Part shown: positions 1 to 25,820 of the stretch, piece by piece
Position numbering within the stretch: position 1 is the first letter of the stretch
Layout: the number at the start of each line of letters is the position of its first letter
Assembly (NCBI RefSeq): GCF_001458695.1
Contig: NZ_LN885086.1
Coordinates: 420,001-452,000, forward strand
Direction of reading: 5' to 3'
DNA length: 32,000 bases
DNA from: Candidatus Nitrospira inopinata
Lineage (GTDB): Bacteria > Nitrospirota > Nitrospiria > Nitrospirales > Nitrospiraceae
Made by a program: the position numbers and the translations under genes
The notes under the pieces: model-generated
The model's input: only the letters and a program-made list of their open reading frames with translations
The model's database searches: none
Told to the model about the DNA's origin: nothing

Positions 1-124
1 AGCATGGATCTGTCATTGCCCGCATCCATTCCATCCAGACGACATTGCAGCGATGTTTGTTCGGTTCTATCCCCATACCGCTCATAGGGGGTGGAATGGT
101 GCTTTTTCCCATGGAGGGACTCCT

Positions 125-2020
125 ATGACACCACGTGGACTTATGATTGGCCTTGTGGCCAGTGTTCTGGTACTGAGCAGCGTCGTGTTCTCTCAAGTTG
201 TGATTCAAGTTCCCCACCCGGATGATCCGCCGCCCCCTCCATCGCTCAAAACCATCCCGATCCCGGAACCGGCGAATCTGGGGGAGTTCGTGCGCGATCG
301 GGAAGCGGCGATTCGGCTGGGCAAGGCGCTGTTCTGGGACATGCAGGTCGGCAGTGATGGCGTGACCGCCTGTGGGAGTTGCCACTTTACATCCGGCATG
401 TCAGATAACAGAAGCCGGAACTCCCTGTCTCCTGGTCTCAAACGCATCACGCGGACTGGCCAGCCCAATCCGGATACCACGTTTTATAACAACCTGGGAC
501 CAGTCGGTGAAGTGACGTCCACGGACTATCCCTTTTTCCCCCGCAGCAATGACGTCCTGTCGTCTCAGGGTGTTCGTCGCTCCGTGTTCGTCGGTGTGGG
601 GCTGGGACCGGCCGACATCACCAGAGCGGAGCCAGACCCGAACGGCTTCCGAGTCGGGTCGGTCAACACACGCTGTGTTGAGCCCCGCAATACTCCAACC
701 GTCATCAATGCCGTGTTCAATCACCGACAATTTTGGGATGGTCGGGCGGATAACGTATTCAATGGGGTCAATAGCCTGGGAGATCGAGATCCGAACGCCC
801 GTGTCTATCGGGCCGATGACCCAAACAGACCGATCCCCGTTCAAGTCCGACTCGAAGACTCAAGCCTCGCTTCGCAAGCCGTAAGTCCGCCGGTCGATCC
901 CTGTGAAATGTCCGCCGTGGGCCGGACCATGCGGGACATCGGAAAAAAGTTTGCTCGCTGGGCTCCGCCAGGCCAGCCGGTCTTTAATCTCCGGCCGCTG
1001 GCCCTCCAACAGGTCCATCCGCAAGACAGTGTGCTCGGTCCCTTGAGCCGCTGGCCGCAGAAAGGGCTTGCCGTGCCCGATTACGCCACCTTGATCCGCC
1101 AAGCCTTTCACCGGCAGTGGTGGGACTCACCGAAAATTTTGCGTGTCGCGCCCGATGGGACTACCACAGTCGTCGATCCGCCGGCCAGCGGAGGTCTCCA
1201 TGCCAATGAGTTTTCGCTGATGCAATACAATTTTGCTCTCTTCTTCGGACTGGCCATCCAACTTTACGAAGCCACCCTCGTAGCGGACGACACGCCGTTT
1301 GACCGATTCATGGAGGGCGACTCCACGGCGTTAAGCCCCCAAGCCCAGTTTGGGCTTAACCTCTTCAAGAGCCAATTGCGGGGACAGTGCATCACCTGCC
1401 ATGAAGGGGCGGAATTGACCGGCGCGTCGGTGCGCCAAGTGAGGGCCAGCCCCATTCGGATTCGCGAAGGCCAAGCCATGGACCGTGGGTTCAATGCAAT
1501 TGGCGTCCTCCCCACACTCCAAGATTTAGGGTTGGGCGCGCGGGATGAATTGGGCAACTGGTTATCCATGGCCAAACGGCTGATCCCACCTCCGCCAGAA
1601 CCGATCGTCGTTGACGGGGCGTTCAAAGTCCCGGGGCTGCGCAACGTCGAGCTGACCGCTCCCTATTTCCACAACGGTGGACACCGGACCCTTCGCGATG
1701 TCGTCGATTTCTATAGTCGAGGTGGCGACTCCCACACCGGCATGGTCACGCTCGATGGAACGGAAATCGTCACCCTCGAAGTCTTCACGTTCACCGAGGA
1801 TGAAATGCAAGCCCTGGAAGCCTTTCTCCGCTCCCTCACCGATGAACGGGTCCGGTACAAACGGGCGCCGTTTGACCATCCGCAAATCTTCATTCCCAAC
1901 GGGGTCGGCCAACCGGTCGGCTTCATGCCCGGCGATCGGTTCGTGGAGATTCCGGCAGTCGGTCGCTATGGTGGAGCGCCGACCCGTCCATTTCTCGAAC
2001 CGGCAAACGGGGCGAGTTAA
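125..2020 (+). CDS. Secreted di-haem cytochrome c peroxidase / MauG-family protein
   Basis: The ORF runs 53..2020. I place the start at ATG 125 because GGAGG lies 7 nt upstream and it gives a signal peptide (MTPRGLMIGLVASVLVLSSVVFS). There are two CxxCH haem motifs (CGSCH, CITCH) and a CCP/MauG-type block, PGLRNVELTAPYFHNGG. Confidence 0.8.
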   Translation: MTPRGLMIGLVASVLVLSSVVFSQVVIQVPHPDDPPPPPSLKTIPIPEPANLGEFVRDREAAIRLGKALFWDMQVGSDGVTACGSCHFTSGMSDNRSRNSLSPGLKRITRTGQPNPDTTFYNNLGPVGEVTSTDYPFFPRSNDVLSSQGVRRSVFVGVGLGPADITRAEPDPNGFRVGSVNTRCVEPRNTPTVINAVFNHRQFWDGRADNVFNGVNSLGDRDPNARVYRADDPNRPIPVQVRLEDSSLASQAVSPPVDPCEMSAVGRTMRDIGKKFARWAPPGQPVFNLRPLALQQVHPQDSVLGPLSRWPQKGLAVPDYATLIRQAFHRQWWDSPKILRVAPDGTTTVVDPPASGGLHANEFSLMQYNFALFFGLAIQLYEATLVADDTPFDRFMEGDSTALSPQAQFGLNLFKSQLRGQCITCHEGAELTGASVRQVRASPIRIREGQAMDRGFNAIGVLPTLQDLGLGARDELGNWLSMAKRLIPPPPEPIVVDGAFKVPGLRNVELTAPYFHNGGHRTLRDVVDFYSRGGDSHTGMVTLDGTEIVTLEVFTFTEDEMQALEAFLRSLTDERVRYKRAPFDHPQIFIPNGVGQPVGFMPGDRFVEIPAVGRYGGAPTRPFLEPANGAS

Positions 2021-9940: not shown

Positions 9941-10324
9941 TCACCGTTTGGCATGGAGGGCCAGATACCGGAAAATGGCTTCGCGATCCTGATCGGTCAG
10001 CGGTGGGAGTCCTTTTTCGCGCATTAACCCTTCCATGCGCGCGACCTCTTTTTTCCACTCTTCGATCGTCCGGAATCTGGGATCCGGCACTCCGTGCGTG
10101 ACGCCGTGATCGCCGAACGGCTGGAGATGGCAGGCTGAACACCGTTGCGCGAAGATTCGCCCATCGGGGGTATCCAGGCCGGGGATACCGGTCCAGGCCC
10201 CACCGCAGCTAGCTAAGAACGGGAGGGCAAGCAGCCCGATCAGGCATCCGCCCCAGTGGCAGAAAGATTGCCACCGTTTCAGTTGAAACTTCATAAGACC
10301 GTCTCGAGCGCAACCACTGGCCAT
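9941..10324 (-). CDS. Small mono-haem c-type cytochrome, probable lipoprotein
   Basis: One CxxCH motif (CSACH) and a lipobox-like LASCGG after a hydrophobic segment. The start is either 10324 or the internal ATG at 10294 (MKFQLKRW…). Confidence 0.65.
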   Translation of the reverse strand: MASGCARDGLMKFQLKRWQSFCHWGGCLIGLLALPFLASCGGAWTGIPGLDTPDGRIFAQRCSACHLQPFGDHGVTHGVPDPRFRTIEEWKKEVARMEGLMREKGLPPLTDQDREAIFRYLALHAKR

Positions 10325-10351: not shown

Positions 10352-11488
10352 TCAATGGGCACGAATGGCCGCGGCTCTGCCTGCGATCAATCTGGCTTGC
10401 AGCGGCTGGCCGATGTCTCTCAACAACGACGCATACCGATCCAATGTCACGGCCAACATCGGATGCTCGCGACCCATGGTTTTCTGCTGGATGACCAGCG
10501 CCCGTTCGTACCGAAGCTTCGCCTCGTCAACGAATCCCCGCTCGTGAAGCAGCCAGGCCCAATTGGCCAAAATTCTTCCTGTGAGCGGGGCGTCTGAGCC
10601 CGACGTCGCCTCACTGACGGCCAATGCCTCACGATAGTATCGGTCCGCCAGTTCCGGCAGCCCTTGGGCATGGTGCAAATTGGCGGCGTTGTTGAGCGAA
10701 ATCGCAACGGCGGGATGGCGGTCGCCGAAACGGGCCCGCCGCAGGGCCACGGCTTCTTCATACAGCGGCTCGGCATAAGCGTAGAGACCCTTCTCTTTGT
10801 ATAGAGCCGCCAGGTTGTTTAGGAGCGGGGCCTGGTTCATGGCCGCGTCCTGCTCGGCTCCTTGGAGAATAGATATCCCCAGATGAAAGAGCGCTTCCGC
10901 TTCGATAAACCGCCCCTGTTTCCGATACAGGCCGGCCAGATTGTTGTATCCGATCGCCATATCGGGATGCCCGCGGCCGAGATTTCGCTCGCCGATCTCA
11001 AGGGACCGGAGATATGCCCGCTCGGCACGTTCGAAATCTCCTTCTTCCTGATAAATCTCCGCCAGATTGTGGAGAGTGGACGCCGCCTCCGGATGATCCA
11101 ATCCGTGCGTGCGCTCCCAGATTTCCAACGCCTGCTCATAGTACGGCTTCGCCCGGTCGTACCGTCCTTCTTCTTGTAAGACCAGACCCAACTGGTTCAG
11201 CGTCGCGGCCGTTCGCGCGTCGTTCGGTCCGGCCCGTTCCAACTCACGACCGGCCAATAACAAGAGCCTCTCCGCCTCTCGATACTGAGCCTGTTCTCGC
11301 GCGGCAATCGCCGTATTGAGCAGTGCCTCCCAGTTTTCCGCCTCGTCGGCAAGAACCGGCTCGGCAAGAACCGGCAAGCAAGCAATTGCCGCCAGGATGA
11401 CGATCGTAACGCCCGCGTTCCGCAGACACTCTGTCATCATCATCCAAGGCGAACCAGTTCCTCGACTCATGCCTCTTCCCCTTCCCAT
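10352..11488 (-). CDS. Exported tetratricopeptide-repeat protein (TPR_12 / kinesin-light-chain-like repeats)
   Basis: About seven repeats of the pattern A..LNNLA.LY..QGRY.EAE.LY.RAL. N-terminal hydrophobic signal (VTIVILAAIACLPVLA). The start is ambiguous, with several in-frame ATGs between 11488 and 11437. Confidence 0.8.
   Translation of the reverse strand: MGRGRGMSRGTGSPWMMMTECLRNAGVTIVILAAIACLPVLAEPVLADEAENWEALLNTAIAAREQAQYREAERLLLLAGRELERAGPNDARTAATLNQLGLVLQEEGRYDRAKPYYEQALEIWERTHGLDHPEAASTLHNLAEIYQEEGDFERAERAYLRSLEIGERNLGRGHPDMAIGYNNLAGLYRKQGRFIEAEALFHLGISILQGAEQDAAMNQAPLLNNLAALYKEKGLYAYAEPLYEEAVALRRARFGDRHPAVAISLNNAANLHHAQGLPELADRYYREALAVSEATSGSDAPLTGRILANWAWLLHERGFVDEAKLRYERALVIQQKTMGREHPMLAVTLDRYASLLRDIGQPLQARLIAGRAAAIRAH
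11346..11375. repeat. Perfect 15-bp tandem duplication, in frame, inside the TPR gene
   Basis: tcggcaagaaccggc occurs twice (11346-11360 and 11361-11375). On the coding strand it encodes PVLAE-PVLAD at the predicted signal-peptide/mature junction. Confidence 0.9.
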
Positions 11489-11682: not shown

Positions 11683-13200
11683 TTACCATCTGGGCGTCGC
11701 TTGGTTGTTGTTTCTCACAAGGCCGTAATAGTACACCGTGACCATTTTGGGATTTCTGCCAACTCGAAACGTGGACGTGATTCGGCCACTGTTCGGATCG
11801 ATCAGTGAAACCGTGCCATTCACCCCCGACGTGGCATTGGTGACGACGACGCCCCTGGCCGAGCCGGCCCCGGCCGGTCCCGTGATCCAGAGATCCATGG
11901 CATGACTGGTCGCTAGCGGCAACGAGACTTCCCGCGCCACGTTGAGGGGATTTCGGTTGAGGATAACCAGCAGGTCTTTCCGCTGATTGGCAGCCTGCGC
12001 GACGGTCAGACCCGCCGAGTCGTTGGACGCCAACAGGTAAAGCTGACGGCCATCCGGAGTAAACTGAAACTGCGCGACACGGACGTCTTGTAAAACCGGA
12101 GCCGGAATATCCGTAAGCGTAAGCCCCCCGGACACCGTTACGTCAACGGAAGCAAACCGCGTGACGACATGATCGGAATCGGACCGGTCTTCGATGATCA
12201 CCAGCAACTCGCGGCCGTCGGGGGCCATGCCGACGTGCGAGATCGACTGCGAACCGGAGATGTGGACCTGAACCGATTTAGAAACTGGAGGGTTTTCGGT
12301 CGGATTAATCTCGATAATCTCAGACGGAGCACGGCCAGAGAGATAGGCATAAGCCTTGTCTGTCGCCTGTGACCAGAACAATCCTGTCGGCGCCGCATTA
12401 CAGTTTACAGTCGACGGCATGGCAAACTGTCTATTGCACAGATCAATCACCATAGGCAGCTCACTCCATGCCGTTCCCCCTCCGGCGATCGGAAGTCCAA
12501 GCAATACGCTGACAATCCCCGTCGTCTTGCTTGCAACAAACACAGAGCGCTGGCTCGGCGGAAGGGCAAATACCACAAAAAACTCCCCTTTCCCCGAAAG
12601 ACACACCCTCGACGTGATGCGAGGCTGTTCCCCTCCTCCAACCCCCAGATGCGAATTGTGCAGGATCGACACCGAGCCTCCATTGGTGCAGCCGGCAAGC
12701 CTGTCGATGCCGTCAGGATCGCCTTCGTTCGTCGTCCATAGTACTTCTCTGTCCACTGGATCTCGATAGATCTTCGTCGGTCGTCGGCCGACGCGCAGAT
12801 GCCCGGTCGTATCGGCCGGATTTGTCGTGATGAAATTCTCAAGAATCGGGGGCGATCCTCCGATTGGATCGATCGCCGCCACCCGATCGCCGGCCGTGTG
12901 GGTCGCGAACACCCATTCGCCCAGAGAAAACGTGACACCACCAATGGCATCGGGTTGAACCGGACCGAGCGACAAGGTACCAATGACAGGAGAAAATTTG
13001 CCGTCCAAGCGCAGCGTGGTCAGCGTCGTATCGTCTTGATTGACGACGAAGGCCATCGGCGTCGTGAGCGGGCTGTTCGGCTCCGGATCGTCTCCTCCGG
13101 TTCCACAGCCGGCAAACAATAAAACTATCACGCACGCCGACTGCCAGCCACACAGACGGAAAGGGCCGCTTCGTGCGCCTACTTGTTTCCCGTGTTTCAT
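11683..13200 (-). CDS. Beta-propeller lipoprotein (YVTN/YncE-like repeats)
   Basis: The ORF runs 11683..13242. ATG 13200 is preferred because GAGGAG lies 9 nt upstream. Lipobox LFAGC. Recurrent strand motifs typical of YVTN-type blades: FVVNQDDTTLTTLRLD, VVTNATSGVNGTVSLIDPNSGRI, VGRNPKMV. Confidence 0.6.
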   Translation of the reverse strand: MKHGKQVGARSGPFRLCGWQSACVIVLLFAGCGTGGDDPEPNSPLTTPMAFVVNQDDTTLTTLRLDGKFSPVIGTLSLGPVQPDAIGGVTFSLGEWVFATHTAGDRVAAIDPIGGSPPILENFITTNPADTTGHLRVGRRPTKIYRDPVDREVLWTTNEGDPDGIDRLAGCTNGGSVSILHNSHLGVGGGEQPRITSRVCLSGKGEFFVVFALPPSQRSVFVASKTTGIVSVLLGLPIAGGGTAWSELPMVIDLCNRQFAMPSTVNCNAAPTGLFWSQATDKAYAYLSGRAPSEIIEINPTENPPVSKSVQVHISGSQSISHVGMAPDGRELLVIIEDRSDSDHVVTRFASVDVTVSGGLTLTDIPAPVLQDVRVAQFQFTPDGRQLYLLASNDSAGLTVAQAANQRKDLLVILNRNPLNVAREVSLPLATSHAMDLWITGPAGAGSARGVVVTNATSGVNGTVSLIDPNSGRITSTFRVGRNPKMVTVYYYGLVRNNNQATPRW

Positions 13201-13242
13201 GATGCATGCTCCTCGAGCAACGGCATTGCCCATGTCCGGCAC

Positions 13243-14346
13243 CTATTGAGAAAACAGCGGGGGCGTTGCGAACGATTTGGTCACTCCCCCAAGGAAACTC
13301 GTTTCTTGCTGTAGATTCCCATTGAAATCTCGATAGATCGGAATCTGCGCGATGAAATAAATCTGCCCGAAATCGAAAGCGTTTAGGACCACCCCGGTTG
13401 AAAACGCCACAAAGGTATGGTCGGTTGTTGGAACCGACCGGCCGATCACGTTGGCATCCAGCAATTCGAGGCGGTTGATCGGATCGGTAGGATTAAACCG
13501 ATACAGCGCCGCCTCGATGTTGTCCCGATCCTTGTAGCGGAAATTAATCTGGTTGGTCAGCACAAGCCAGGGAAATGTCACCAGATTGAGACCCGCGCTG
13601 ACGGTAAATTCCTGCCCGAATCGATACCCGTCCGAGTTCCGCATCGTGTACCGATAGTTGCCAGACAGGAATTGGTTCAGGCGGTGGGGCAAAATTTCGT
13701 AGGTTTGGTAGAAACCCGGCTGAAAGCCGAATGCTCCCCTCCCGACTTGAAGTGTCGATTCAGCGAGCTGCCCGGTCACAGCCTCGTGACCATAGTCTCC
13801 AATGGGAAACCAGATCCCCATTTCCAAGACGACCATGCTGCGCAGGGTCGGAAGCACGTTGTACTTGACCTTGCCCAGAATGTCTCCAAACCCACGGTCG
13901 AACGTATTGGAGACCGCGCCCGTGCCGATCTGTCCGACGGCATCGATCATTCGGTAGGGGATTTGCACCTGAAGGCCGATCCGTTCGGTCAGTCCATAAT
14001 TCAGATCCAATGCCCCTATTTGCACCAGCGTGCGAAGCTGACTGACTTGGCTGTTGGCCAAAATCAGTTGCTTAGTCTGTTGGTTGGCGAACGGAATGGT
14101 GCTCACACCCTCGGGCGGAATGCCGTTCGGGGTATGGGTGAAATTCACGTTTACCGTCAAAACACCGGCCGGCGAGACCGCCTGTTGCGAACTGATCACC
14201 ACGAAGCAACTCGCCGATCCGCAGGACGCTTCCGCCGCTTGTTCGGAAAGACTCGCACCTTGCGCCAACAGCAGCAATAGGCAAACTAGACGTCGGACCT
14301 TCACCAATCTGCGTCTCCCGTGACAATCGTGACGGCTCATTTTCAA
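13243..14346 (-). CDS. Putative outer-membrane beta-barrel protein
   Basis: Signal-like N-terminus (RRLVCLLLLLAQGAS). The body has alternating, aromatic-rich strands and many G/N/Y/F turns. The stop abuts the downstream propeller gene. Any resemblance to MetA/phenol-degradation-type barrels is only an impression. The start is uncertain: TTG 14346, ATG 14340, or further in. Confidence 0.45.
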   Translation of the reverse strand: MKMSRHDCHGRRRLVKVRRLVCLLLLLAQGASLSEQAAEASCGSASCFVVISSQQAVSPAGVLTVNVNFTHTPNGIPPEGVSTIPFANQQTKQLILANSQVSQLRTLVQIGALDLNYGLTERIGLQVQIPYRMIDAVGQIGTGAVSNTFDRGFGDILGKVKYNVLPTLRSMVVLEMGIWFPIGDYGHEAVTGQLAESTLQVGRGAFGFQPGFYQTYEILPHRLNQFLSGNYRYTMRNSDGYRFGQEFTVSAGLNLVTFPWLVLTNQINFRYKDRDNIEAALYRFNPTDPINRLELLDANVIGRSVPTTDHTFVAFSTGVVLNAFDFGQIYFIAQIPIYRDFNGNLQQETSFLGGVTKSFATPPLFSQ

Positions 14347-14371: not shown

Positions 14372-14695
14372 TTACGAAGCCGTGGTCGCTCGCCGTCGCG
14401 AGCCGGCCGCCTCGGCGAGCATGCGCTTGCGCCCTCTGGCTCCTGAGATCGACACGACGGGAGCCTGCCCCCTCTGCGTAACCCCTGCTGGAATCGGCGC
14501 TCCGACGTAATGCCGGCTGATTAAGGCAGCTACCGTATCGCTAAAAATTCGCAGGGTGCCGGCCCCGATTCGCGTACCGCCGAGTTGCCCGGCCTCGACC
14601 CACCGATAGATCGTCCAACGACTCACACTCAACAGTCTGGCTGCTTCATCGACCCGCAACAACCGCTTACTCTGCAATGAGAGAAAGTCTTCCAT
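14372..14695 (-). CDS. Excisionase-family (MerR-like HTH_17) DNA-binding protein
   Basis: The ORF runs 14372..14851. I start at ATG 14695 because AAGGAGG lies 8 nt upstream. HTH block LLRVDEAARLLSVSRWTIYRWVEAGQLGGTRIG. It lies 25 nt upstream of the barrel gene on the same strand. Confidence 0.7.
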   Translation of the reverse strand: MEDFLSLQSKRLLRVDEAARLLSVSRWTIYRWVEAGQLGGTRIGAGTLRIFSDTVAALISRHYVGAPIPAGVTQRGQAPVVSISGARGRKRMLAEAAGSRRRATTAS

Positions 14696-14916
14696 GATAA
14701 ACGCACCTCCTTGCTTCTCACACGTGTTAGCGACCGTCTCCAAGGTAGCCTCGACCATTCCCCATCTCCATGACGAAGCCGTCACGGCCGTGGAAGTCAG
14801 GCCACCCCGCTTATTTTTTATTGACGCGAATCCCGATCGCCGCCGGTGCAACGAATCGGCATCTTGCTTTCAAGAGCAATACACGCCCCTGAGCACCGGG
14901 ATTGAATAGGGAGAAG

Positions 14917-15219
14917 TTAGAAAGAAAAGGGAGGGCCGCGAGAGAACAGCCTCAATCGCTTGAGGTCATCGATTTGGCTGTCAGACTCGACGCGCTGGAT
15001 GGCTATGAAAGAAAAAACTGGAGCGAAAACGGAATCACTTACCTCATACCCTTGCCCTACGCCACAAAACCATGCACACAACGGAGATGAATGGGTCGCC
15101 GCCTTATGATGACTATGCTGGACCTCATGGCCGACGGCCGACGGCGCCGCGAGAATGGGCACCAACAACAGGCACGCCACAAGGGGCAGGACGAGCATCT
15201 GTCGATTCAAACGAGTCAT
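14917..15219 (-). CDS. Small exported His/Cys-rich protein, paralog 1
   Basis: Signal peptide (LVLPLVACLLLVPILAAPSA). His cluster HEVQHSHHKAATH. Motif LCAWFCGVGQGYEVS. The C-terminal end is SRGPPFSF. It starts 6 nt after the TlpA stop. It is a clear paralog of 15934..16254. Confidence 0.65.
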   Translation of the reverse strand: MTRLNRQMLVLPLVACLLLVPILAAPSAVGHEVQHSHHKAATHSSPLCAWFCGVGQGYEVSDSVFAPVFSFIAIQRVESDSQIDDLKRLRLFSRGPPFSF

Positions 15220-15225
15220 GTCGCC

Positions 15226-15798
15226 TTACCGGGCCAACGCCGCTTGATCGGATTTCCCGCCTTGAATTCGATGAAACGTCTGCGCGATCTTCTCTTCCGT
15301 CAGCAGTCCGCCCTTGACGTATTCTTGCACCACGCCTTTTTCGTCGATAAAGACGCTGACCGGCAACCCGAACACGCCGAATTGATTGGCCACCTTATTG
15401 TCCCGATCCATCAAGACCGGAAATGTGTGTCCATACTGCTTGATGTGCTCGCGCACTTTGGCTTCGTCTTCTAACTCATTGACCGCGAGCACCACAAACC
15501 CTTTGTCCTTGAGCTTGTCGTAAGCCGTTTGCATCGCGGGCATTTCCGTCGTGCAGGGCTTGCACCAGGTGGCCCAGAAGTTCACAAGGACGACCTTGCC
15601 GCGATACTGACTGAGACTTTGCTGTTTTCCTTCAAGATCGATGAGTCGAAAATCCTCCGCCGGAGTCCCCACCGCCGGCACACGCGAACCCATCGCCCAC
15701 ACCAAGTGGGTTGAGAACATCAGCAGCAGAGAGAGGGCAAGCCATGCTCCCCGTTTTAGGTTGATCAATCGCAAGGGCGACCATTCTTCTCGATTCAT
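15226..15798 (-). CDS. TlpA/ResA-family periplasmic thiol:disulfide oxidoreductase
   Basis: N-terminal membrane anchor or signal, then a thioredoxin-fold block GKVVLVNFWATWCKPCTTEMP with the WCxPC active site, and a GLPVSVFID block. Confidence 0.85.
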   Translation of the reverse strand: MNREEWSPLRLINLKRGAWLALSLLLMFSTHLVWAMGSRVPAVGTPAEDFRLIDLEGKQQSLSQYRGKVVLVNFWATWCKPCTTEMPAMQTAYDKLKDKGFVVLAVNELEDEAKVREHIKQYGHTFPVLMDRDNKVANQFGVFGLPVSVFIDEKGVVQEYVKGGLLTEEKIAQTFHRIQGGKSDQAALAR

Positions 15799-15933
15799 CC
15801 TGAAACCTTATGGGTTACCCATCGCTTGAAAAGATTGATTCCGCTCTCGTCGCCATGCCTTGCGACTAAAGAACCTGGCCCCTAGAAAATTTCTTCGCAA
15901 AACCGTCTGGAAACAGACTGCCCGAAGCGAAAC

Positions 15934-16254
15934 TCAGGAAACGGGAGGGCCTCGCGCTACTATGACGTAGGAATGGATGATGGAAGCTTGCTCGCCTACC
16001 CGATGCTCAATCCATTCGGACGGGAATTCTTCCCAAAGTCGCGGAGCAACCGAGACTTCCCACCCCTGTCCGGCAACGCATGACCAAGCACAGAGTACAG
16101 TGTTGTGATGAGAGGACGGTTGATGATGGGAGCGATGATCAAAATCGTGCGACACCGACTGCCCGATTGCCAGCCCGCCGACCGACAACACGCAGCCAAC
16201 AACAAGGATCGAAAGAACTCTCACAACACCGCGATTCATCATGACGGCTCGCAC
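15934..16254 (-). CDS. Small exported His/Cys-rich protein, paralog 2
   Basis: Signal peptide (VRVLSILVVGCVLSVGGLAIG). His cluster HDFDHRSHHQPSSHH. Motif LCAWSCVAGQGWEVS. The C-terminal end is ARGPPVS. The start is GTG 16254 or ATG 16242/16239. Confidence 0.65.
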   Translation of the reverse strand: MRAVMMNRGVVRVLSILVVGCVLSVGGLAIGQSVSHDFDHRSHHQPSSHHNTVLCAWSCVAGQGWEVSVAPRLWEEFPSEWIEHRVGEQASIIHSYVIVARGPPVS

Positions 16255-16446
16255 GTGTTTTCTCGCGAGAGCGATGCTAATAGACTGATTGATGATTTGT
16301 CAAGACAGTCCAGAGCGACAATTATCTTATTATCTATCGCCTCCTAATCCATCCCTCAGGCTTACTTATAGGATTCGTCGGACGGATGCGGTATACTGCA
16401 CCGGTTTGTCGTTTTTATTTTTACGGACTATTGACGATTCGGCATC

Positions 16447-19170
16447 ATGGTCACTCAGCTACTCAATCTCATTTTCGGCAGCAAAAACGACAGGGAAATC
16501 AAGGCGCTCCTTCCGATCGTGGAACGGATCAACGGCCTGGAGTCCGGATTGACGCCGCTTTCCGACCAGGCCCTTGCGGACAAGACTCCGGACTTCAAGA
16601 AACGTCTGGAAGCCGGAGCGACACTCGACGACATCTTGCCGGAAGCCTTTGCCGTGTGCCGCGAAATGTCCCGCCGCGTGCTCAACATGCGGCATTTCGA
16701 TGTGCAACTCATCGGCGGCATGATCCTGCACAAGGGCCGCATCGCGGAGATGAAAACCGGCGAAGGGAAAACCCTGGTCGCCACCCTCCCCATTTTTTTG
16801 AACGCGCTCGAAGGGAAAGGCGTCCACCTGGTCACCGTCAACGATTATCTCGCCAAGCGAGACGCCCAATGGATGGGACGCCTCTACCATGCGTTGGGCC
16901 TGTCCACCGGCATCATTCAGCACGATGCCTCGTTTCTCTTTGATCCGACCTATGAATCGGCAGACAAGCGGCTCCAGCATCTTCGGCCTTGCACCAGAGC
17001 CGAAGCCTATCGCGCCGACATCACCTACGGCACGAACAACGAGTACGGGTTCGATTACCTGCGCGACAACCTCGTGGTGACCGACCTGAGTCAATGCGTC
17101 CAGCGCGAGCTGAACTTCGCCATCGTGGACGAGGTCGACAGCATTCTGATCGACGAGGCGCGGACGCCGCTGATCATTTCCGGGCCGACCGATCAATCCA
17201 CCGACCTCTACTATCGGATCAACGCGATCATCCCCCAATTGAAACCGGAGCGGGATTATACGATCGAAGAAAAAACCAAGACCGCCGCGTTGACGGAAGA
17301 CGGCAACGCCCGCGTGGAAAAACTGCTCGGCGTGGAGAACCTCTACGACCCCGCCCACATGGATCTGGTGCACCACGTGGTCAAGGCGCTGCAGGCCCAC
17401 GCGCTGTACAAACGCGACGTGGACTACGTCGTCAAGGACGGCGAAGTCATCATCGTGGACGAATTTACGGGCCGACTGATGCCCGGCCGCCGCTGGAGCG
17501 ACGGTCTGCACCAAGCCGTCGAGGCCAAGGAAGGCGTCAAAATCGCCAACGAAAATCAGACGCTGGCGTCCATCACCTTCCAAAATTATTTCCGCATGTA
17601 CAAGAAGCTCAGCGGCATGACCGGAACCGCGGATACCGAGGCCGCCGAATTCGCCAAAATCTACAACCTCGACGTCAACGTGGTGCCGACCAACCGCAAG
17701 ATGATCCGCATCGACTATCCCGACGTCGTCTATCGGACGGAGAAAGAAAAATTCACCGCCATCGTCGAGGAAATTAAAGATTGCCACCAGCGCGGGCAGC
17801 CGGTGCTGGTCGGCACCATCTCCATCGAAAAATCCGAAAAGCTCTCGGCGCTCCTGAACCGGAACGGCGTCAAGCACAACGTCCTGAACGCCAAGCACCA
17901 TGAGCGGGAAGCCGAGATCGTCGCGCAAGCCGGTCGAAAAGGCGCCGTCACCATCGCCACCAACATGGCGGGACGCGGCACCGACATTCTGTTGGGCGGC
18001 AACCCCGACTTCCTCTACAAGCAAGTGTTGTATCGGGAAGAGAACCTGCCCGACGCCCGCAAACTTGAACTCTACGAAGAGATCAGGGCGGACTGTGAAA
18101 AGAACAAGCAGGAGGTGATCGCCTGCGGCGGACTGCACATCCTGGGGACCGAGCGACACGAGAGCCGTCGAATCGACAATCAATTGCGCGGGCGGGCCGG
18201 TCGGCAGGGCGATCCCGGCACGTCCCGGTTCTATCTGTCGCTTGAAGACGATCTGATGCGCATTTTCGCCTCGGAACGGGTCTCGCAACTGATGCTCAAG
18301 CTCGGCATGGAAGAGGGCGTACCCATCGAGCACGGCATGGTGACGCGCGCGATCGCCAACGCGCAGAAGAAAGTCGAAGCCCACAACTTTGAGATCCGCA
18401 AACAGTTGCTTGAATATGACGACGTCATGAACAAGCAGCGCGAAGTGATTTATCGACACCGGCGGGCGGTCCTCAGCGGAGAAAACCTCGGAGAAAACCT
18501 CCGCGACATGATGGCCGGATTGGTGGACTCGGCTATGAACGTCTACTGCCCGCCCGACCAATACCCGGAAGAGTGGGATCTCAAGGGCCTGGTGGAAATG
18601 ATGCAGGGCCAATTCGGCGTCGACATCACCCAGGGCAAGCACGATAAAGGAGAGTCGCTCCGAGAGATCGGGCGGGACGCCCTGTTGGAAGACTTGCACG
18701 CCCAGGTTCGCGAGGCCTATTCGCGGAAAGAGCAGGAATTGGGACCGGAGCTGATGCGGTTTCTGGAGAAGACCTTCATGCTCCAGGTCATCGATCATCA
18801 TTGGAAAGACCATTTGCTCGCCATGGATCACCTGCGAGACGGCATCGGCCTTCGCGGCTACGGGCAAAAAGACCCGTTGATCGAATATAAACGCGAAGGT
18901 TTTGATCTCTTCGCCGGCATGATGGAACGGATCAAATCCGATACGATCAACCGGCTGCTGCACGTCCAAGCCGTTCGTCAAGACGCGGAACCGCCGTCAT
19001 CCGCGCCCCCTCCCGTCGTTTCCCGTCCGCAGGCCAAACTCACGTTGAACCGCGGCGAAGAACCCGCCGCGGCCCCAGCTCCCGCGCACCGCGCCGACGC
19101 CAAGGTCGGCCGCAATGATCCCTGCCCCTGCGGAAGCGGCAAGAAGTACAAAAAATGCCACGGCGCGTAA
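16447..19170 (+). CDS. secA: Preprotein translocase ATPase SecA
   Basis: N-terminus [21 protein letters not shown]. Walker [41 protein letters not shown]-terminal zinc finger [14 protein letters not shown]. Confidence 0.97.
18477..18501. repeat. Perfect 12-bp tandem duplication, in frame, inside secA
   Basis: ggagaaaacctc occurs twice, with period-12 identity over 25 nt. It encodes GENL-GENL in …[16 protein letters not shown]…. Confidence 0.9.
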
Positions 19171-19211
19171 CGGCGAGTTCTACCGGACCGGTTGCGCCGA
19201 CAGGTTTGATT

Positions 19212-19235
19212 CAAGCCGCTCGCGGCTTGGTTTTG
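19212..19235 (+). terminator. Putative intrinsic terminator of secA
   Basis: 7-bp stem caagccg / cggcttg with loop ctcg, followed by gttttg, about 40 nt after the secA stop. Confidence 0.55.
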
Positions 19236-19445
19236 CGATCGACTGGAACGTGCTTCTTCCTGAAGCGAGCGCCCAAAAATACCGATCGGTCTTGGTCACT
19301 GACTTCCGCTCTCCGCGGGGCTTCGCCGACACGATTCGCGTCTTCTCGTCGAGCACGCTTTCGACACGACCATCGATGCGACCATGACGGACCTTGCATT
19401 TTGCGACGAAAGCCTCTAGACTCTGCCGCCTGGGAGAACCAACGT

Positions 19446-19541
19446 ATGTCGAGCGTTTTGAAAAAACGACGAAAAAAGATGCGCAAGCACAAATACAAAA
19501 AGCTGCGCAGACGCCAAAAGTTTCTTCGCCGCAAAAGTTAA
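19446..19541 (+). CDS. 31-aa highly basic micro-protein, bS22-like (AURKAIP1/COX24-type small ribosomal protein)
   Basis: MSSVLKKRRKKMRKHKYKKLRRRQKFLRRKS. GGGAGA lies about 8-10 nt upstream of ATG 19446. It is near-collinear with the mycobacterial bS22 sequence as I recall it ([33 protein letters not shown]). Confidence 0.7.
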   Translation: MSSVLKKRRKKMRKHKYKKLRRRQKFLRRKS

Positions 19542-24266: not shown

Positions 24267-25820
24267 TCACACCCACCCTACCGCCTGCGGAGACGGCTCG
24301 TTGGCAAGGTCATAGGCCCGTCTGAGTTCGTCGGCCTCCCGTTCGGCGACATCGATCAATTCCGGAACCGCTTGGCGGACGAATTCCACGAACATCGATA
24401 TCTTGACCAGAAAGAAATCGTACGAACCTTCCATCGTCCTGGGACGTTCAAACCAAAAGGACACGAACGTGGAGAGCGGCACCCTCTTCTCGTCGAGCCG
24501 TCCGCAGGATTCCGGAAACATCGCGCGCACGTCGCCTCCCCAGAACAGGACCTCGTAAGGAAGATAGACGGATCGATACAGGTCCAGCTCATCGATGCAG
24601 GCTGTCGGCTGGGTCCACTCCGGTCCGCCCGGCTCAGCTTGTCCGGAAACGACGCGGGCATATCGTTCGTAGGCCGATTCGAGCGCCGATCTGACGGCGG
24701 CCGACGTGCATTGTTTTTGAGTCGTTTGCGTCTCCTCATCCCAACAGAGCGTCTTCTTGGGTCGCCGCCCCTGCGAGAAAACTCGCGCATAACGTTCCTG
24801 AAACTCCGAGAATTCTTTCACGATCAGCGGAACCGCCTTCGTGTCCACCTCCAGCGCAAGCCCTCGCAGATTGGTCAAGCGTGGATTCCCGAGAATCCGA
24901 TCCAGCATCTCGAACAGAAGCGGCGGGATGGGAGCGCCATGGGCGTCTATCCAAGAGGGGGGGCGATCCGTCTGTTCCCGACGCGGACAGACTCCTGGAA
25001 CGCTCTCGTCGGCGGCATGGAGGTCGAGACCGGCGACGTGGATTTGGACGACGCGATGCAAGGGAAACTCTTCAAGAAATCCATCGACGAATTGCTCAAG
25101 GGAAGCCGTTCGCCAAGCCCCTGAGTAACGAAACACGGTCCACAGATGCCCGACATCGAGCACGAGCCCGCAGGGGGCGGCCTGGGTAATAAGACGGAAA
25201 AACGTCGGGATCGGCAGGGTGCCCGCCACAAAATAGGTCAATGGAGGCAGCTCGAGAAGCAGCAACGGGGAGCGGCCGTTCACGAAGCCATCATGCCGAT
25301 CAAGCATGGTTTGCGCGACCATTGCATTTTCGGCCACCACGGCCGCACCGGCTTCGGTATAAAGCGGCGGCAAATAGGTTCCATACGAATAACCGGCGAT
25401 AGATTTGGCGGCGCATTCGTGTGTCAGCCATGCGCTGTCGAGCACCGACAGGTGGCGCGCGATCTCATCTACCTCCTTAAGAAACACCGGATCTTCATGA
25501 ACGCCTGGCTGCGTTAGCCACAATCCTTCTCCATGGTACGGAGTCAAACCTTCTCCCATCCGGTTCCTGACGGCGGCCAACGCCGCGGGAACCGCGCGAA
25601 AGATCTCCATATAGTCGGGAAACACTTGACGTTGGCACAGCGTTCCAAGCAAGGTAAAGATATCGGGGGAGTAGACGTCGAGGGAAAGGCCCAGCCCATG
25701 AAGCGGGACCTGCTCAAGACGACGGAGGAACGATCGCTCGACGAGATCCGAAGTCTCCATACCATTCATTTGTGACGCGCCAAAGCGCCTAGAGTGTACG
25801 CCTTGAAACCATTGAATCAC
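24267..25820 (-). CDS. DUF692/MNIO-family (MbnB/TglH/BufB-like TIM-barrel) enzyme fused to a DUF2063-like C-terminal domain
   Basis: The N-terminal ~300 aa are collinear with the UPF0276/DUF692 consensus as I recall it: HGLGLSL, DYMEIF, YHGEGLWL, AWLTHECA, YLPPLYTE, PLLLLELPPLTYF, CGLVLDVGHLW, RVVQIHVAGLD. The C-terminal ~170 aa (LDLYRSVYLPYEVLFWGGDVRAMFPESCGRL…FVSFW…FFLVKISMFVEFV) resemble the N-terminal helical part of DUF2063 partner proteins. The start is uncertain: GTG 25820, ATG 25769 or ATG 25760. Confidence 0.7.
   Translation of the reverse strand: MIQWFQGVHSRRFGASQMNGMETSDLVERSFLRRLEQVPLHGLGLSLDVYSPDIFTLLGTLCQRQVFPDYMEIFRAVPAALAAVRNRMGEGLTPYHGEGLWLTQPGVHEDPVFLKEVDEIARHLSVLDSAWLTHECAAKSIAGYSYGTYLPPLYTEAGAAVVAENAMVAQTMLDRHDGFVNGRSPLLLLELPPLTYFVAGTLPIPTFFRLITQAAPCGLVLDVGHLWTVFRYSGAWRTASLEQFVDGFLEEFPLHRVVQIHVAGLDLHAADESVPGVCPRREQTDRPPSWIDAHGAPIPPLLFEMLDRILGNPRLTNLRGLALEVDTKAVPLIVKEFSEFQERYARVFSQGRRPKKTLCWDEETQTTQKQCTSAAVRSALESAYERYARVVSGQAEPGGPEWTQPTACIDELDLYRSVYLPYEVLFWGGDVRAMFPESCGRLDEKRVPLSTFVSFWFERPRTMEGSYDFFLVKISMFVEFVRQAVPELIDVAEREADELRRAYDLANEPSPQAVGWV

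Follow-up and report, generated by a model that had tools for sequence, protein, structure and literature searches.

In a 32,000-nucleotide stretch of the Candidatus Nitrospira inopinata genome (contig NZ_LN885086.1, positions 420,001 to 452,000; hereafter the window), two small open reading frames (ORFs), P1 and P2, lie on either side of a gene for a TlpA-like thiol:disulfide oxidoreductase. By analogy with characterized systems, P1 and P2 are likely to be cis-acting regulatory sensors that work as arrest peptides of the RAPP/RGPP class, and not chaperones. We arrive at this reading because of an arrest motif near the C-terminus, a 41-residue ruler between this motif and a Cys pair, the lack of a predicted fold, an export signal and a gate-like gene order. 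P1 and P2 are probably functional analogues, and remote relatives, of CruR (DUF2946) and CutF. The initial annotation of this DNA had regarded them as stable periplasmic proteins for metal binding or metal delivery; we replaced that reading because their anatomy is that of the copper-sensing nascent-chain regulators CruR and CutF (PMC9426467, PMC9973294).

Two paralogous ORFs of an unannotated Nitrospirota family

The P2, redoxin and P1 ORFs are all found on the minus strand (Table 1), with 135 nt from the P2 stop to the TlpA start and 6 nt from the TlpA stop to the P1 start; the three ORFs, their coordinates, their order and the 6-nt gap are as the initial annotation gave them. Counted from a GTG codon P2 has 106 residues, and counted from the ATG at 16242 it has 102. 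The ATG is probably the true start, because the P2 homologs are 102 residues long and begin with MMNRG. P1 and P2 are paralogous (35% identity, E = 4e-14 in BLASTP), and their alignment spans the His clusters, the LCAWxCxxGQG[YW]EVS block and the C-terminal RGPP, in agreement with the shared architecture described before. The ratio of nonsynonymous to synonymous substitution rates (dN/dS) among orthologs was 0.03-0.17 in the His/Cys block (the putative sensor block), 0.29-0.41 in the linker that follows it and 0.02-0.06 in the RxPP motif. Conservation and purifying selection are thus evident, most clearly in the first and the last of these segments, and to judge from the sequences P1 and P2 are translated genes under selection.

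Pfam and NCBIfam gave no match for P1 or P2, even at E = 10. With P2 as query, a word-indexed search returned only seven relatives, and a profile made from these seven, run against 1.84 billion representative sequences (50% clustering), found 213 proteins at E <= 1e-3, nearly all of about 100 residues and matching from end to end. A second profile search gave 344 clusters, in which all the named members came from Nitrospira, Nitrospiraceae or Nitrospirota; the 14 genome loci obtained from a narrower family alignment were also all from Nitrospira, Nitrospiraceae or Nitrospirota. P1 and P2 belong to an unannotated family, every named member of which is from Nitrospirota.

The loose resemblance to DUF2946 pointed out in the initial annotation reappeared in the family: 12 of 105 relatives had sub-threshold matches to this domain (best E = 0.001), and one relative was colinear with it from the His block to the last position of the hidden Markov model, scoring 13.5 bits against a gathering threshold of 23.7. 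The P family appears to be at most a remote relative of DUF2946. Weak matches to DUF6153 (PF19650), a family of small proteins, were also obtained, from 9 of the 105 family members (best E = 0.027); DUF6153 may be a further family of arrest peptides.

A fixed distance between the His/Cys block and a candidate arrest motif

All parts of P1 and P2 follow the order seen in the family, namely a K/R-flanked hydrophobic N-terminus, the His/Cys block, a hypervariable linker, S-R-[G/A/S]-P-P and the stop. The export signal, judged from a K/R-flanked hydrophobic 15-mer on the Kyte-Doolittle (KD) scale together with the N-terminal helix in the AlphaFold2 (AF2) model, was present in P1, in P2 (15-mer KD 2.6-3.0 for the two) and in 221 of 235 relatives. 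The block itself reads H-x3-H-x2-HH-x5-H-x4-C-x-W-x-C-A-A-G-Q. In the family alignment the columns H47, C52 and C56 are invariant and H33, H37, H41 and W54 are conserved in at least 94% of the sequences, and the block looks like a metal or redox site, as noted before.

Of 155 family proteins, 144 carry R[G/A/S]PP at 1-9 residues from the C-terminus, and the R and PP of this motif are invariant. Of the 144 members with both motifs, 143 have the second Cys and the Arg separated by exactly 41 residues, and P1 (C52 to R94) and P2 (C59 to R101) fit this spacing, which becomes 45 when counted from the first Cys. The segment had earlier been described as variable and about 45 residues long; its variability was borne out, but the length of 45 applies only from the first Cys and the fixed value is 41. 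The linker comprises 36 columns with an entropy of 3.0-3.9 bits and zero gaps, and appears to be constrained mainly by its length. The AF2 model, built on a 105-sequence alignment, showed no globular fold after residue 60 (residues 61-103 were coil, with a predicted template modelling score of 0.39); its helices were the N-terminal one, at residues 5-37, and a short one over the Cys motif at 50-60.

The nearness of RGPP to the C-terminus, recognized in the initial annotation, is exact to 2 residues before the stop in P2 and 3 in P1. The sequence R[AG]PP occurs in only 6 of the 471 open frames of at least 40 codons in the window, and near the C-terminus only in P1 and P2. Such R-A/G-P-P sequences stall the ribosome with Pro-tRNA in the A site. 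RAPP and RGPP have been reported as the most robust arrest cores, refractory to elongation factor P (EF-P), depleted from proteomes and enriched at the C-terminal ends of small secretory proteins (Fujiwara et al. 2025, PMC12992588). R-G/A-P-P close to a stop being an established arrest motif (PMC12992588, PMC10951233), the earlier suggestion of a secreted precursor that is processed at RGPP loses its footing.

The same anatomy bears on the view of P1 and P2 as stable secreted periplasmic proteins that would bind or carry a metal such as copper and act in trans, with the CxxxC reduced by TlpA. The signal peptide, the His cluster and the Cys pair that such proteins would need are all present, the His/Cys block is under purifying selection, and the adjoining TlpA-like reductase has weak similarity to SCO1/SenC. 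However, no globular fold is predicted past residue 60, and 36 hypervariable columns of fixed length suit a ruler from ribosome to translocon and would be needless in a folded domain. The invariant R-G/A-P-P is moreover a motif that proteomes avoid (PMC12992588), and the systematic layout, with tight coupling to the upstream gene, a long leader and several paralogs per locus, each before a different gene (see below), is not what this view would lead one to expect. Since arrest motif, fixed-length linker, missing fold and gate-like layout all speak otherwise, we consider a stable chaperone improbable.

Two further features of the N-terminal region were considered and rejected. A lipobox at LVAC of P1 was dismissed, as its Cys is only 49% conserved and the hydrophobic residues run on past it. 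Many members (P2 residues 28-36, P1 residues 26-31) have a plausible A-x-A/S signal-peptidase site followed by X-X-His, and their mature N-terminus would resemble an amino-terminal Cu(II)- and Ni(II)-binding (ATCUN) site; as a family feature this was discarded, because several members have Pro at position 2.

The P ORFs occupy recurring, gate-like positions

The P-redoxin-P order was found in the window and in about 25 Nitrospira loci, and it recurred in nearly all related loci with enough flanking sequence, so the triad described from this one genome is a recurrent arrangement. In all loci a redoxin gene invariably accompanies the P ORFs. The window and most loci share the order P2 - TlpA - P1 - HTH_17 - outer-membrane barrel (Phenol_MetA_deg type) - lipoprotein of ~520 aa. 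Other arrangements, in which Trx stands for thioredoxin and OMP for outer-membrane protein, are P - Trx - P - OMP - P - YVTN - P (L018), P - OMP - Trx - P - OMP - P - YVTN (L025), P - TonB - Trx - BNR_2 - P - TonB-dependent receptor (L021) and P - OMP - Trx - P - TonB - BNR_2 - Trx - P - TonB-dependent receptor - HTH_17 - ExbB (L023). A motif scan showed that many loci carry three or four paralogous CxWxC-41-R[G/A]PP ORFs (the divergent extra copies are listed in Table 1) and the window only two. One type of extra paralog, with HCxWHCDGI, was seen between the outer-membrane barrel gene and a propeller gene of ~530 aa, and another, with CAWAC, directly upstream of a TonB-dependent receptor gene.

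The spacing of these genes follows a common layout. A P ORF starts 0-6 nt past the preceding gene or overlaps it, and it is followed by a leader of 80-220 nt, past which comes a gene for a redoxin, HTH_17, outer-membrane barrel, TonB, TonB-dependent receptor or beta-propeller. In its sequence arrangement the layout looks like a series of gates and not like a set of structural proteins. The neighbourhoods with TonB, TonB-dependent receptor and redoxin genes parallel those of CruR and of CutF-like proteins, including AhpC_TSA genes. In one locus (L026:13001-14306) a DsbA-like gene and a gene for a YHS/HMBD heavy-metal P-type ATPase were noticed ~6 kb downstream of the sensors; the ATPase is the sole copper-type gene seen near any member, and it is only a hint.

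The P cluster is always divergent from secA, the window included. In every related locus the first sensor ORF has secA (16447-19170 (+) in the window) as its divergent neighbour. Sec genes are the classic cis targets of RAPP-type arrest peptides, but in these loci secA lies on the other strand. The adjacency to secA may be synteny only, or it may reflect a shared divergent promoter region of ~190 nt.

Codon preference at the motif and RNA structure of the leaders

Among 53 distinct ORFs from loci L001-L026, the motif has CCT as its first Pro codon in 38 (72%) and CCG in 5; in the window the two Pro codons (CCT CCC) lie at 14929-14934 in P1 and at 15943-15948 in P2. In the long ORFs of the same loci, Pro codons are 48% CCG and 13% CCT, and the first Pro of Pro-Pro pairs is CCT in 20%. 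The adjacent Gly codon varies freely. The binomial P value for the CCT bias is tiny, but it is nominal only and not a true probability, as the sequences are related. The preference yields the pentamer CCUCC, and it could reflect pairing as an anti-Shine-Dalgarno sequence or a tRNA-specific effect on stalling.

RNAalifold, applied to 11 leaders between P1 and HTH_17, paired the CCUCC with the GGAGG Shine-Dalgarno sequence of HTH_17 in 9-11 of the 11 sequences. This helix encloses the three hairpins of the P1 leader. For these hairpins 86% of the cells were paired, against 44-53% for slid partners, with compensatory changes at 12 pairs, and the covariation score was equalled by 0 of 500 shuffles. 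Single-sequence folds agree on the CCUCC:GGAGG pairing in the window (pair probability ~0.8) and in three other loci (L009, L017 and L002).

For the P2-to-TlpA leader, the initial annotation had reported a small hairpin with a T-run. The hairpin (GUCUG-UUUC-CAGAC followed by GGUUUUG, at ~15918-15898) does exist, but it is unremarkable, and the fold of its region does not improve on that of shuffled sequences (z = 0.28). The fold obtained for seven close loci is plausible: the 3' end of P2 pairs with a G-rich stretch ~100 nt downstream and a second hairpin takes in the TlpA Shine-Dalgarno and AUG, with almost no compensatory changes. Sites resembling intrinsic terminators near the ORF ends were weak and not commoner than in shuffles, and Rfam gave no match in the region.

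The TlpA-like reductase and redox monitoring as an alternative signal

The middle gene matched AhpC-TSA (2e-32), Redoxin (6e-29) and also Thioredoxin_8 in Pfam, and showed weak similarity to SCO1/SenC. With its thioredoxin-fold domains, WCKPC active site and hydrophobic N-terminus it has the features of a TlpA/ResA-type protein, and the thioredoxin fold, WCxxC and N-terminal anchor are what it shares with the TlpA, ResA and CcmG reductases. Its best NCBIfam matches were ResA and TlpA, both of them under the cutoff (148.4 against 170 for ResA, 82.5 against 230 for TlpA). Unlike those reductases, it falls below the equivalog and subfamily cutoffs, and no Sco, PCuAC, CoxB or Ccm gene is adjacent to it. 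Its client may be the P1 and P2 sensors themselves; the idea in the initial annotation that the Cys pair is a client of TlpA is possible within a sensing mechanism.

An alternative keeps the same arrest mechanism and replaces metal by thiol redox state as the signal, the nascent CxWxC acting as a 'monitoring substrate' to be oxidized by the Dsb system or reduced by the TlpA-like protein. The disulfide state would then set the pulling force, and P2 would feedback-regulate TlpA according to the periplasmic reducing capacity. The redoxin gene is always a partner of the P ORFs, in all loci, and SecM and MifM, both classic arrest peptides, monitor how active the product of their downstream gene is, which we count in favour of this alternative. 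In addition, RAPP/RGPP upstream ORFs (uORFs) with a Cys pair precede thioredoxin-domain and DsbA genes (PMC12992588), and the present model of CutF uses disulfide formation as the force that relieves the stall (bioRxiv 10.1101/2025.02.05.636593). However, a pure redox sensor would have no evident need of the nearly invariant histidines (4-6) beside the Cys pair, and other P copies precede genes for TonB, receptors and channels, uptake functions which suit control by a nutrient metal better. Pure redox monitoring is accordingly a reading that we find rather unlikely, though it has to be taken seriously. The redox and the metal readings are compatible, as TlpA may keep the sensor thiols reduced for metal binding.

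Other genes of the window and features of the cluster

The coordinates of the cluster and of the extra paralogs are collected in Table 1. The HTH_17 homologs are called at 104-115 aa. The outer-membrane barrel protein of the window itself has no Pfam match. Homologs of the lipoprotein are named 'YVTN beta-propeller' by the Joint Genome Institute, and all those with a named source are from Nitrospira or Nitrospirae; when the window's 519-aa lipoprotein was compared with the BNR_2 propellers of sister loci no homology was found, and it showed no relative with a solved structure.

Downstream of the cluster there are genes for a cytochrome P460 (9049-9603 (-)), a small c-type cytochrome (9941-10324 (-)) and a TPR protein (10352-11488 (-)), and their synteny is kept in four of the related loci (L001, L002, L018 and L019). 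A 128-aa ORF that overlaps the end of secA (19155-19541 (+)) matches Pfam COX24_C (E = 7e-11), the C-terminal domain of a mitochondrial mRNA-processing protein and an odd annotation in a bacterium. At 53-2020 (+) the window encodes a 655-aa protein with two stretches matching di-haem cytochrome c peroxidase/MauG (E = 2e-22).

A further gene encodes a 517-aa MbnB_TglH_ChrH protein, of a family that modifies Cys in ribosomally synthesized and post-translationally modified peptides (RiPPs) (E = 3e-11, 24267-25820 (-), syntenic in L001). P1 and P2 were also considered as precursors of a secreted peptide or a RiPP, processed at or near RGPP and possibly modified on Cys by this enzyme. P1 and P2 are indeed small, exported and Cys-containing. 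The MbnB-like gene, however, lies ~8 kb away, beyond secA, at the head of a separate run that includes Dus and Maf homologs, and neither a precursor nor a partner gene is evident next to it. The P ORFs have no consistently linked gene for a protease, cyclase or exporter, and the stretch before RGPP is hypervariable and not a conserved core peptide. We rejected the precursor idea as highly improbable, the MbnB-like gene being distant and in another gene run.

Table 1. Features of the P2-TlpA-P1 cluster in the window and divergent extra P paralogs in related Nitrospira loci
Feature	Locus	Position	Strand	Basis or detail
P2, small exported sensor/arrest-peptide ORF (predicted)	Window	15934..16254	(-)	ORF; homologs; profile search; dN/dS; first gene of the cluster
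P2 sensor block H36, H40, H43, H44, H50, C55-A-W-S-C59	Window	16078..16149	(-)	Invariant or nearly invariant columns
P2 candidate arrest motif R101-G-P-P104, CGA GGC CCT CCC	Window	15943..15954	(-)	2 residues before stop
P2-to-TlpA leader, 135 nt	Window	15799..15933	(-)	Hairpin ~15918-15898; second hairpin enclosing TlpA Shine-Dalgarno and AUG
TlpA/ResA-like periplasmic thiol:disulfide oxidoreductase, WCKPC, N-terminal signal or anchor	Window	15226..15798	(-)	190 aa; Pfam/NCBIfam
P1, second sensor/arrest-peptide ORF (predicted)	Window	14917..15219	(-)	100 aa; orthologs in 10 other loci
P1 sensor block H31, H35, H37, H38, H43, C48-A-W-F-C52	Window	15064..15129	(-)	Conserved; dN/dS 0.03
P1 candidate arrest motif R94-G-P-P97, CGC GGC CCT CCC	Window	14929..14940	(-)	3 residues before stop
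CCTCC, candidate anti-Shine-Dalgarno inside P1 Pro-Pro codons	Window	14930-14934	(-)	Predicted pairing with GGAGG
P1-to-HTH leader, 221 nt	Window	14696..14916	(-)	Three internal hairpins with covariation; GGAGG Shine-Dalgarno at 14706-14710
HTH_17 (excisionase/MerR-like) DNA-binding protein, first gene after P1	Window	14372..14695	(-)	ATG 14695; Pfam HTH_17 6e-9; TIGR01764 4e-11
Outer-membrane beta-barrel, probable cargo gene	Window	13243..14346	(-)	Syntenic orthologs match Pfam Phenol_MetA_deg (PF13557)
Lipoprotein ~505-519 aa, last conserved gene of putative operon	Window	11683..13242	(-)	Synteny; homolog names
Sigma-70-like promoter candidate upstream of P2: TTGACA, 18 nt spacer, TAGCAT	Window	16274..16303	(-)	Consensus match only
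Extra divergent paralog	L003	7146-7514		
Extra divergent paralog	L012	5207-5725		
Extra divergent paralog	L018	9430-9846		
Extra divergent paralog	L018	11859-12245		
Extra divergent paralog	L021	11184-11522		
Extra divergent paralog	L023	10469-10822		
Extra divergent paralog	L025	8545-8907		
Extra divergent paralog	L026	8413-8769		

Proposed mechanism

The starting point of the model is what was observed: how the P proteins are built and conserved, the ruler of exactly 41 residues, the preference for CCT, the gene order that recurs from locus to locus and the covariation in the P1 leader. From it we infer arrest, ligand and regulation in P1 and P2. A pulling force on the nascent chain frees arrests of the R-A/G-P-P kind, and a stalled ribosome remodels the mRNA downstream of it. 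The N-terminal signal would take each P peptide co-translationally to the Sec translocon, and the ribosome would stall at R-G-P-P, its P site holding the first Pro and its A site the second. Counted back from the peptidyl-transferase centre, the CxWxC would at this moment be 41-45 residues away and the His cluster 54-66, both of them at or past the translocon, where a periplasmic event on the His/Cys block could set the pulling force and hence the duration of the stall. The favoured event would be the binding of a soft metal, most likely copper, in view of the Cys2/His-rich ligand set and the precedents of CruR and CutF; alternatively the Cys pair, a possible substrate of the TlpA-like reductase, would be oxidized or reduced.

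The stalled ribosome would leave the 3' end of the small ORF unpaired and in this way alter the expression of the next gene. A stall in P1 would expose the Shine-Dalgarno sequence of HTH_17 and switch on the genes for HTH_17, the outer-membrane barrel and the lipoprotein. The target of P2 would be the TlpA gene and, via coupling, P1, and the TlpA-like reductase, encoded between the sensors, would be in a good position to hold their thiols in the reduced state or to fail in this. By analogy, metal might relieve the stall, as for CruR, or enhance it, as for CutF. The uptake-type cargo (outer-membrane channel, TonB, receptor) fits the logic of CruR, in which sufficiency of the metal would shut the genes off.

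Several observations weigh against regarding P1 and P2 as sensors of this kind. Both proteins gave no DUF2946 match at E <= 10 and failed Pfam membership, and a dN/dS of 0.29-0.41 in the linker points to some constraint at the protein level besides length. The CCUCC:GGAGG helix is invariant and shows no covariation, which speaks neither for nor against the helix, both of its sides being conserved for other reasons. In single-sequence folds from elsewhere, the C-rich arrest codons often pair with other G-rich stretches, frequently inside coding sequence; because of these other partners, pairing of the arrest codons with a Shine-Dalgarno sequence is suggested for P1 only. The P2-to-TlpA leader had no conserved structure across 14 divergent loci. 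Sister loci encode TonB-dependent receptors that do not resemble OprC and match best, though weakly, the PqqU-like or siderophore type, and no canonical copper genes are found within the window's cluster.

Taken as a whole, the secA-adjacent envelope/uptake locus of Nitrospira might be run by a series of paralogous sensors, each gating a gene or a block of genes for a redoxin, an HTH regulator, an outer-membrane barrel or TonB-dependent receptor, or a beta-propeller, with TlpA setting the redox state of their Cys pairs and CCUCC serving as anti-Shine-Dalgarno; this complete picture is speculative, and we would not expect it to hold in every part. If it did, the locus would combine metal and redox logic.

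Nitrospirota are the main nitrite oxidizers and include the comammox bacteria, and the economy of Cu and Fe matters for nitrification. If the arrest-peptide reading is right, metal-sensing nascent-chain regulators of the CruR/CutF type would reach into this phylum, and an unannotated family of several hundred clusters would gain a name and a testable function. New for the class would be the presence of several sensor ORFs in one locus, each of them tied closely to the preceding gene and serving as a gate to the following one, and the use of arrest codons that may double as a Shine-Dalgarno mask. The exact 41-residue ruler would provide a clean natural gauge of the distance from ribosome to translocon, which could be exploited experimentally. 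For annotators, small His/Cys-rich 'periplasmic proteins' with a terminal RAPP or RGPP are probably regulators and not chaperones.

Comparison with known arrest-peptide systems

The regulator type is known from CruR, CutF and the RAPP/RGPP class; it is not described in Nitrospira or in a multi-copy layout. Our literature search found no link between Nitrospira and arrest peptides, and Nitrospirota are absent from the published list of >2000 CruR homologues.

CruR of Bordetella pertussis (Bp2923; DUF2946/PF11162) is exported and has a CXXC motif and a RAPP sequence three residues ahead of its C-terminal end; the spacing between them is 45 residues, conserved within 1-2, and five added residues abolish regulation (PMC9426467). 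Expression of the TonB-dependent receptor encoded downstream needs the RAPP, and the arrest is relieved by copper (PMC9426467); this arrest was demonstrated by toeprinting, with the P site occupied by Pro-3 and the A site by Pro-4 (PMC12992588). P1 and P2 are similar to CruR in being small exported proteins with a Cys pair at a fixed distance from a near-terminal arrest motif and with a long leader after the ORF. However, CruR has CXXC, whereas P1 and P2 have an invariant C-x-W-x-C (CxxxC) and carry in addition a cluster of 5-6 histidines. The distance from Cys to motif is 45 +/- 2 in CruR, whereas in P1 and P2 it is 41 after the second Cys and 45 only from the first, and RGPP is commoner than RAPP in the P family. 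CruR is a single copy heading its operon; the P family has two to four copies per locus, internal positions included, P2 being first in the gene run after the divergent secA and P1 and the further paralogs lying inside it.

CutF of Rhodobacter capsulatus combines a signal peptide with a CxxxC and with a proline motif at its C-terminus, and it senses periplasmic copper during its co-translational export (PMC9973294). Its stalling melts a stem-loop that masks the cutO Shine-Dalgarno sequence (PMC9973294; bioRxiv 10.1101/2025.02.05.636593), with a pulling force set by disulfide formation versus copper binding (bioRxiv 10.1101/2025.02.05.636593). P1 and P2 share with CutF the signal, the CxxxC and the proline motif, the signal of CutF being of the Sec/signal recognition particle type and its action in cis only (PMC9973294). 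They also fall within the CutF-like definition of Ozturk et al. 2023 on all four counts, i.e. a length below 150 aa, a signal peptide, PP among the final 15 residues and a gene downstream, in the same orientation, within 1000 nt. The motif of CutF, however, is an EF-P-dependent PPP, whereas the RGPP of P1 and P2 is a motif reported as refractory to EF-P. CutF controls a multicopper oxidase, whereas the putative targets of the P family are the TlpA-like redoxin, the HTH regulator and outer-membrane/uptake genes. The mask, too, would be different: a separate downstream stem-loop for CutF, and for P1, as we propose, the arrest codons themselves (CCUCC).

Within the RAPP/RGPP class, proteins with these motifs precede sec genes and genes for TonB-dependent receptors, YcnI, PCuAC, PepSY, DsbA and thioredoxin-domain proteins, and uORFs upstream of thioredoxin-domain genes have a conserved Cys pair, e.g. 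SLIV_27375 (PMC12992588). P1 and P2 show the features of the class, being small, with an N-terminal signal, a near-terminal motif and a gene downstream in the same orientation. They have the same core as ApdA, ApdP, ApcA, the Streptomyces lividans set and SecM (RAGP), in which it likewise stands at the C-terminus of small secretory or membrane proteins encoded ahead of a regulated gene (PMC12992588, PMC10951233, PMC7897499). The characterized peptides of this class monitor Sec or YidC, whereas P1 and P2 are not upstream of secA and their sensor block is unrelated. What sets the P family apart from all these systems is the sensor block, composed of a His cluster and CxWxC, the 41-residue ruler and the placement of several copies within one locus; possibly, it also differs by arrest codons that serve as a Shine-Dalgarno mask.

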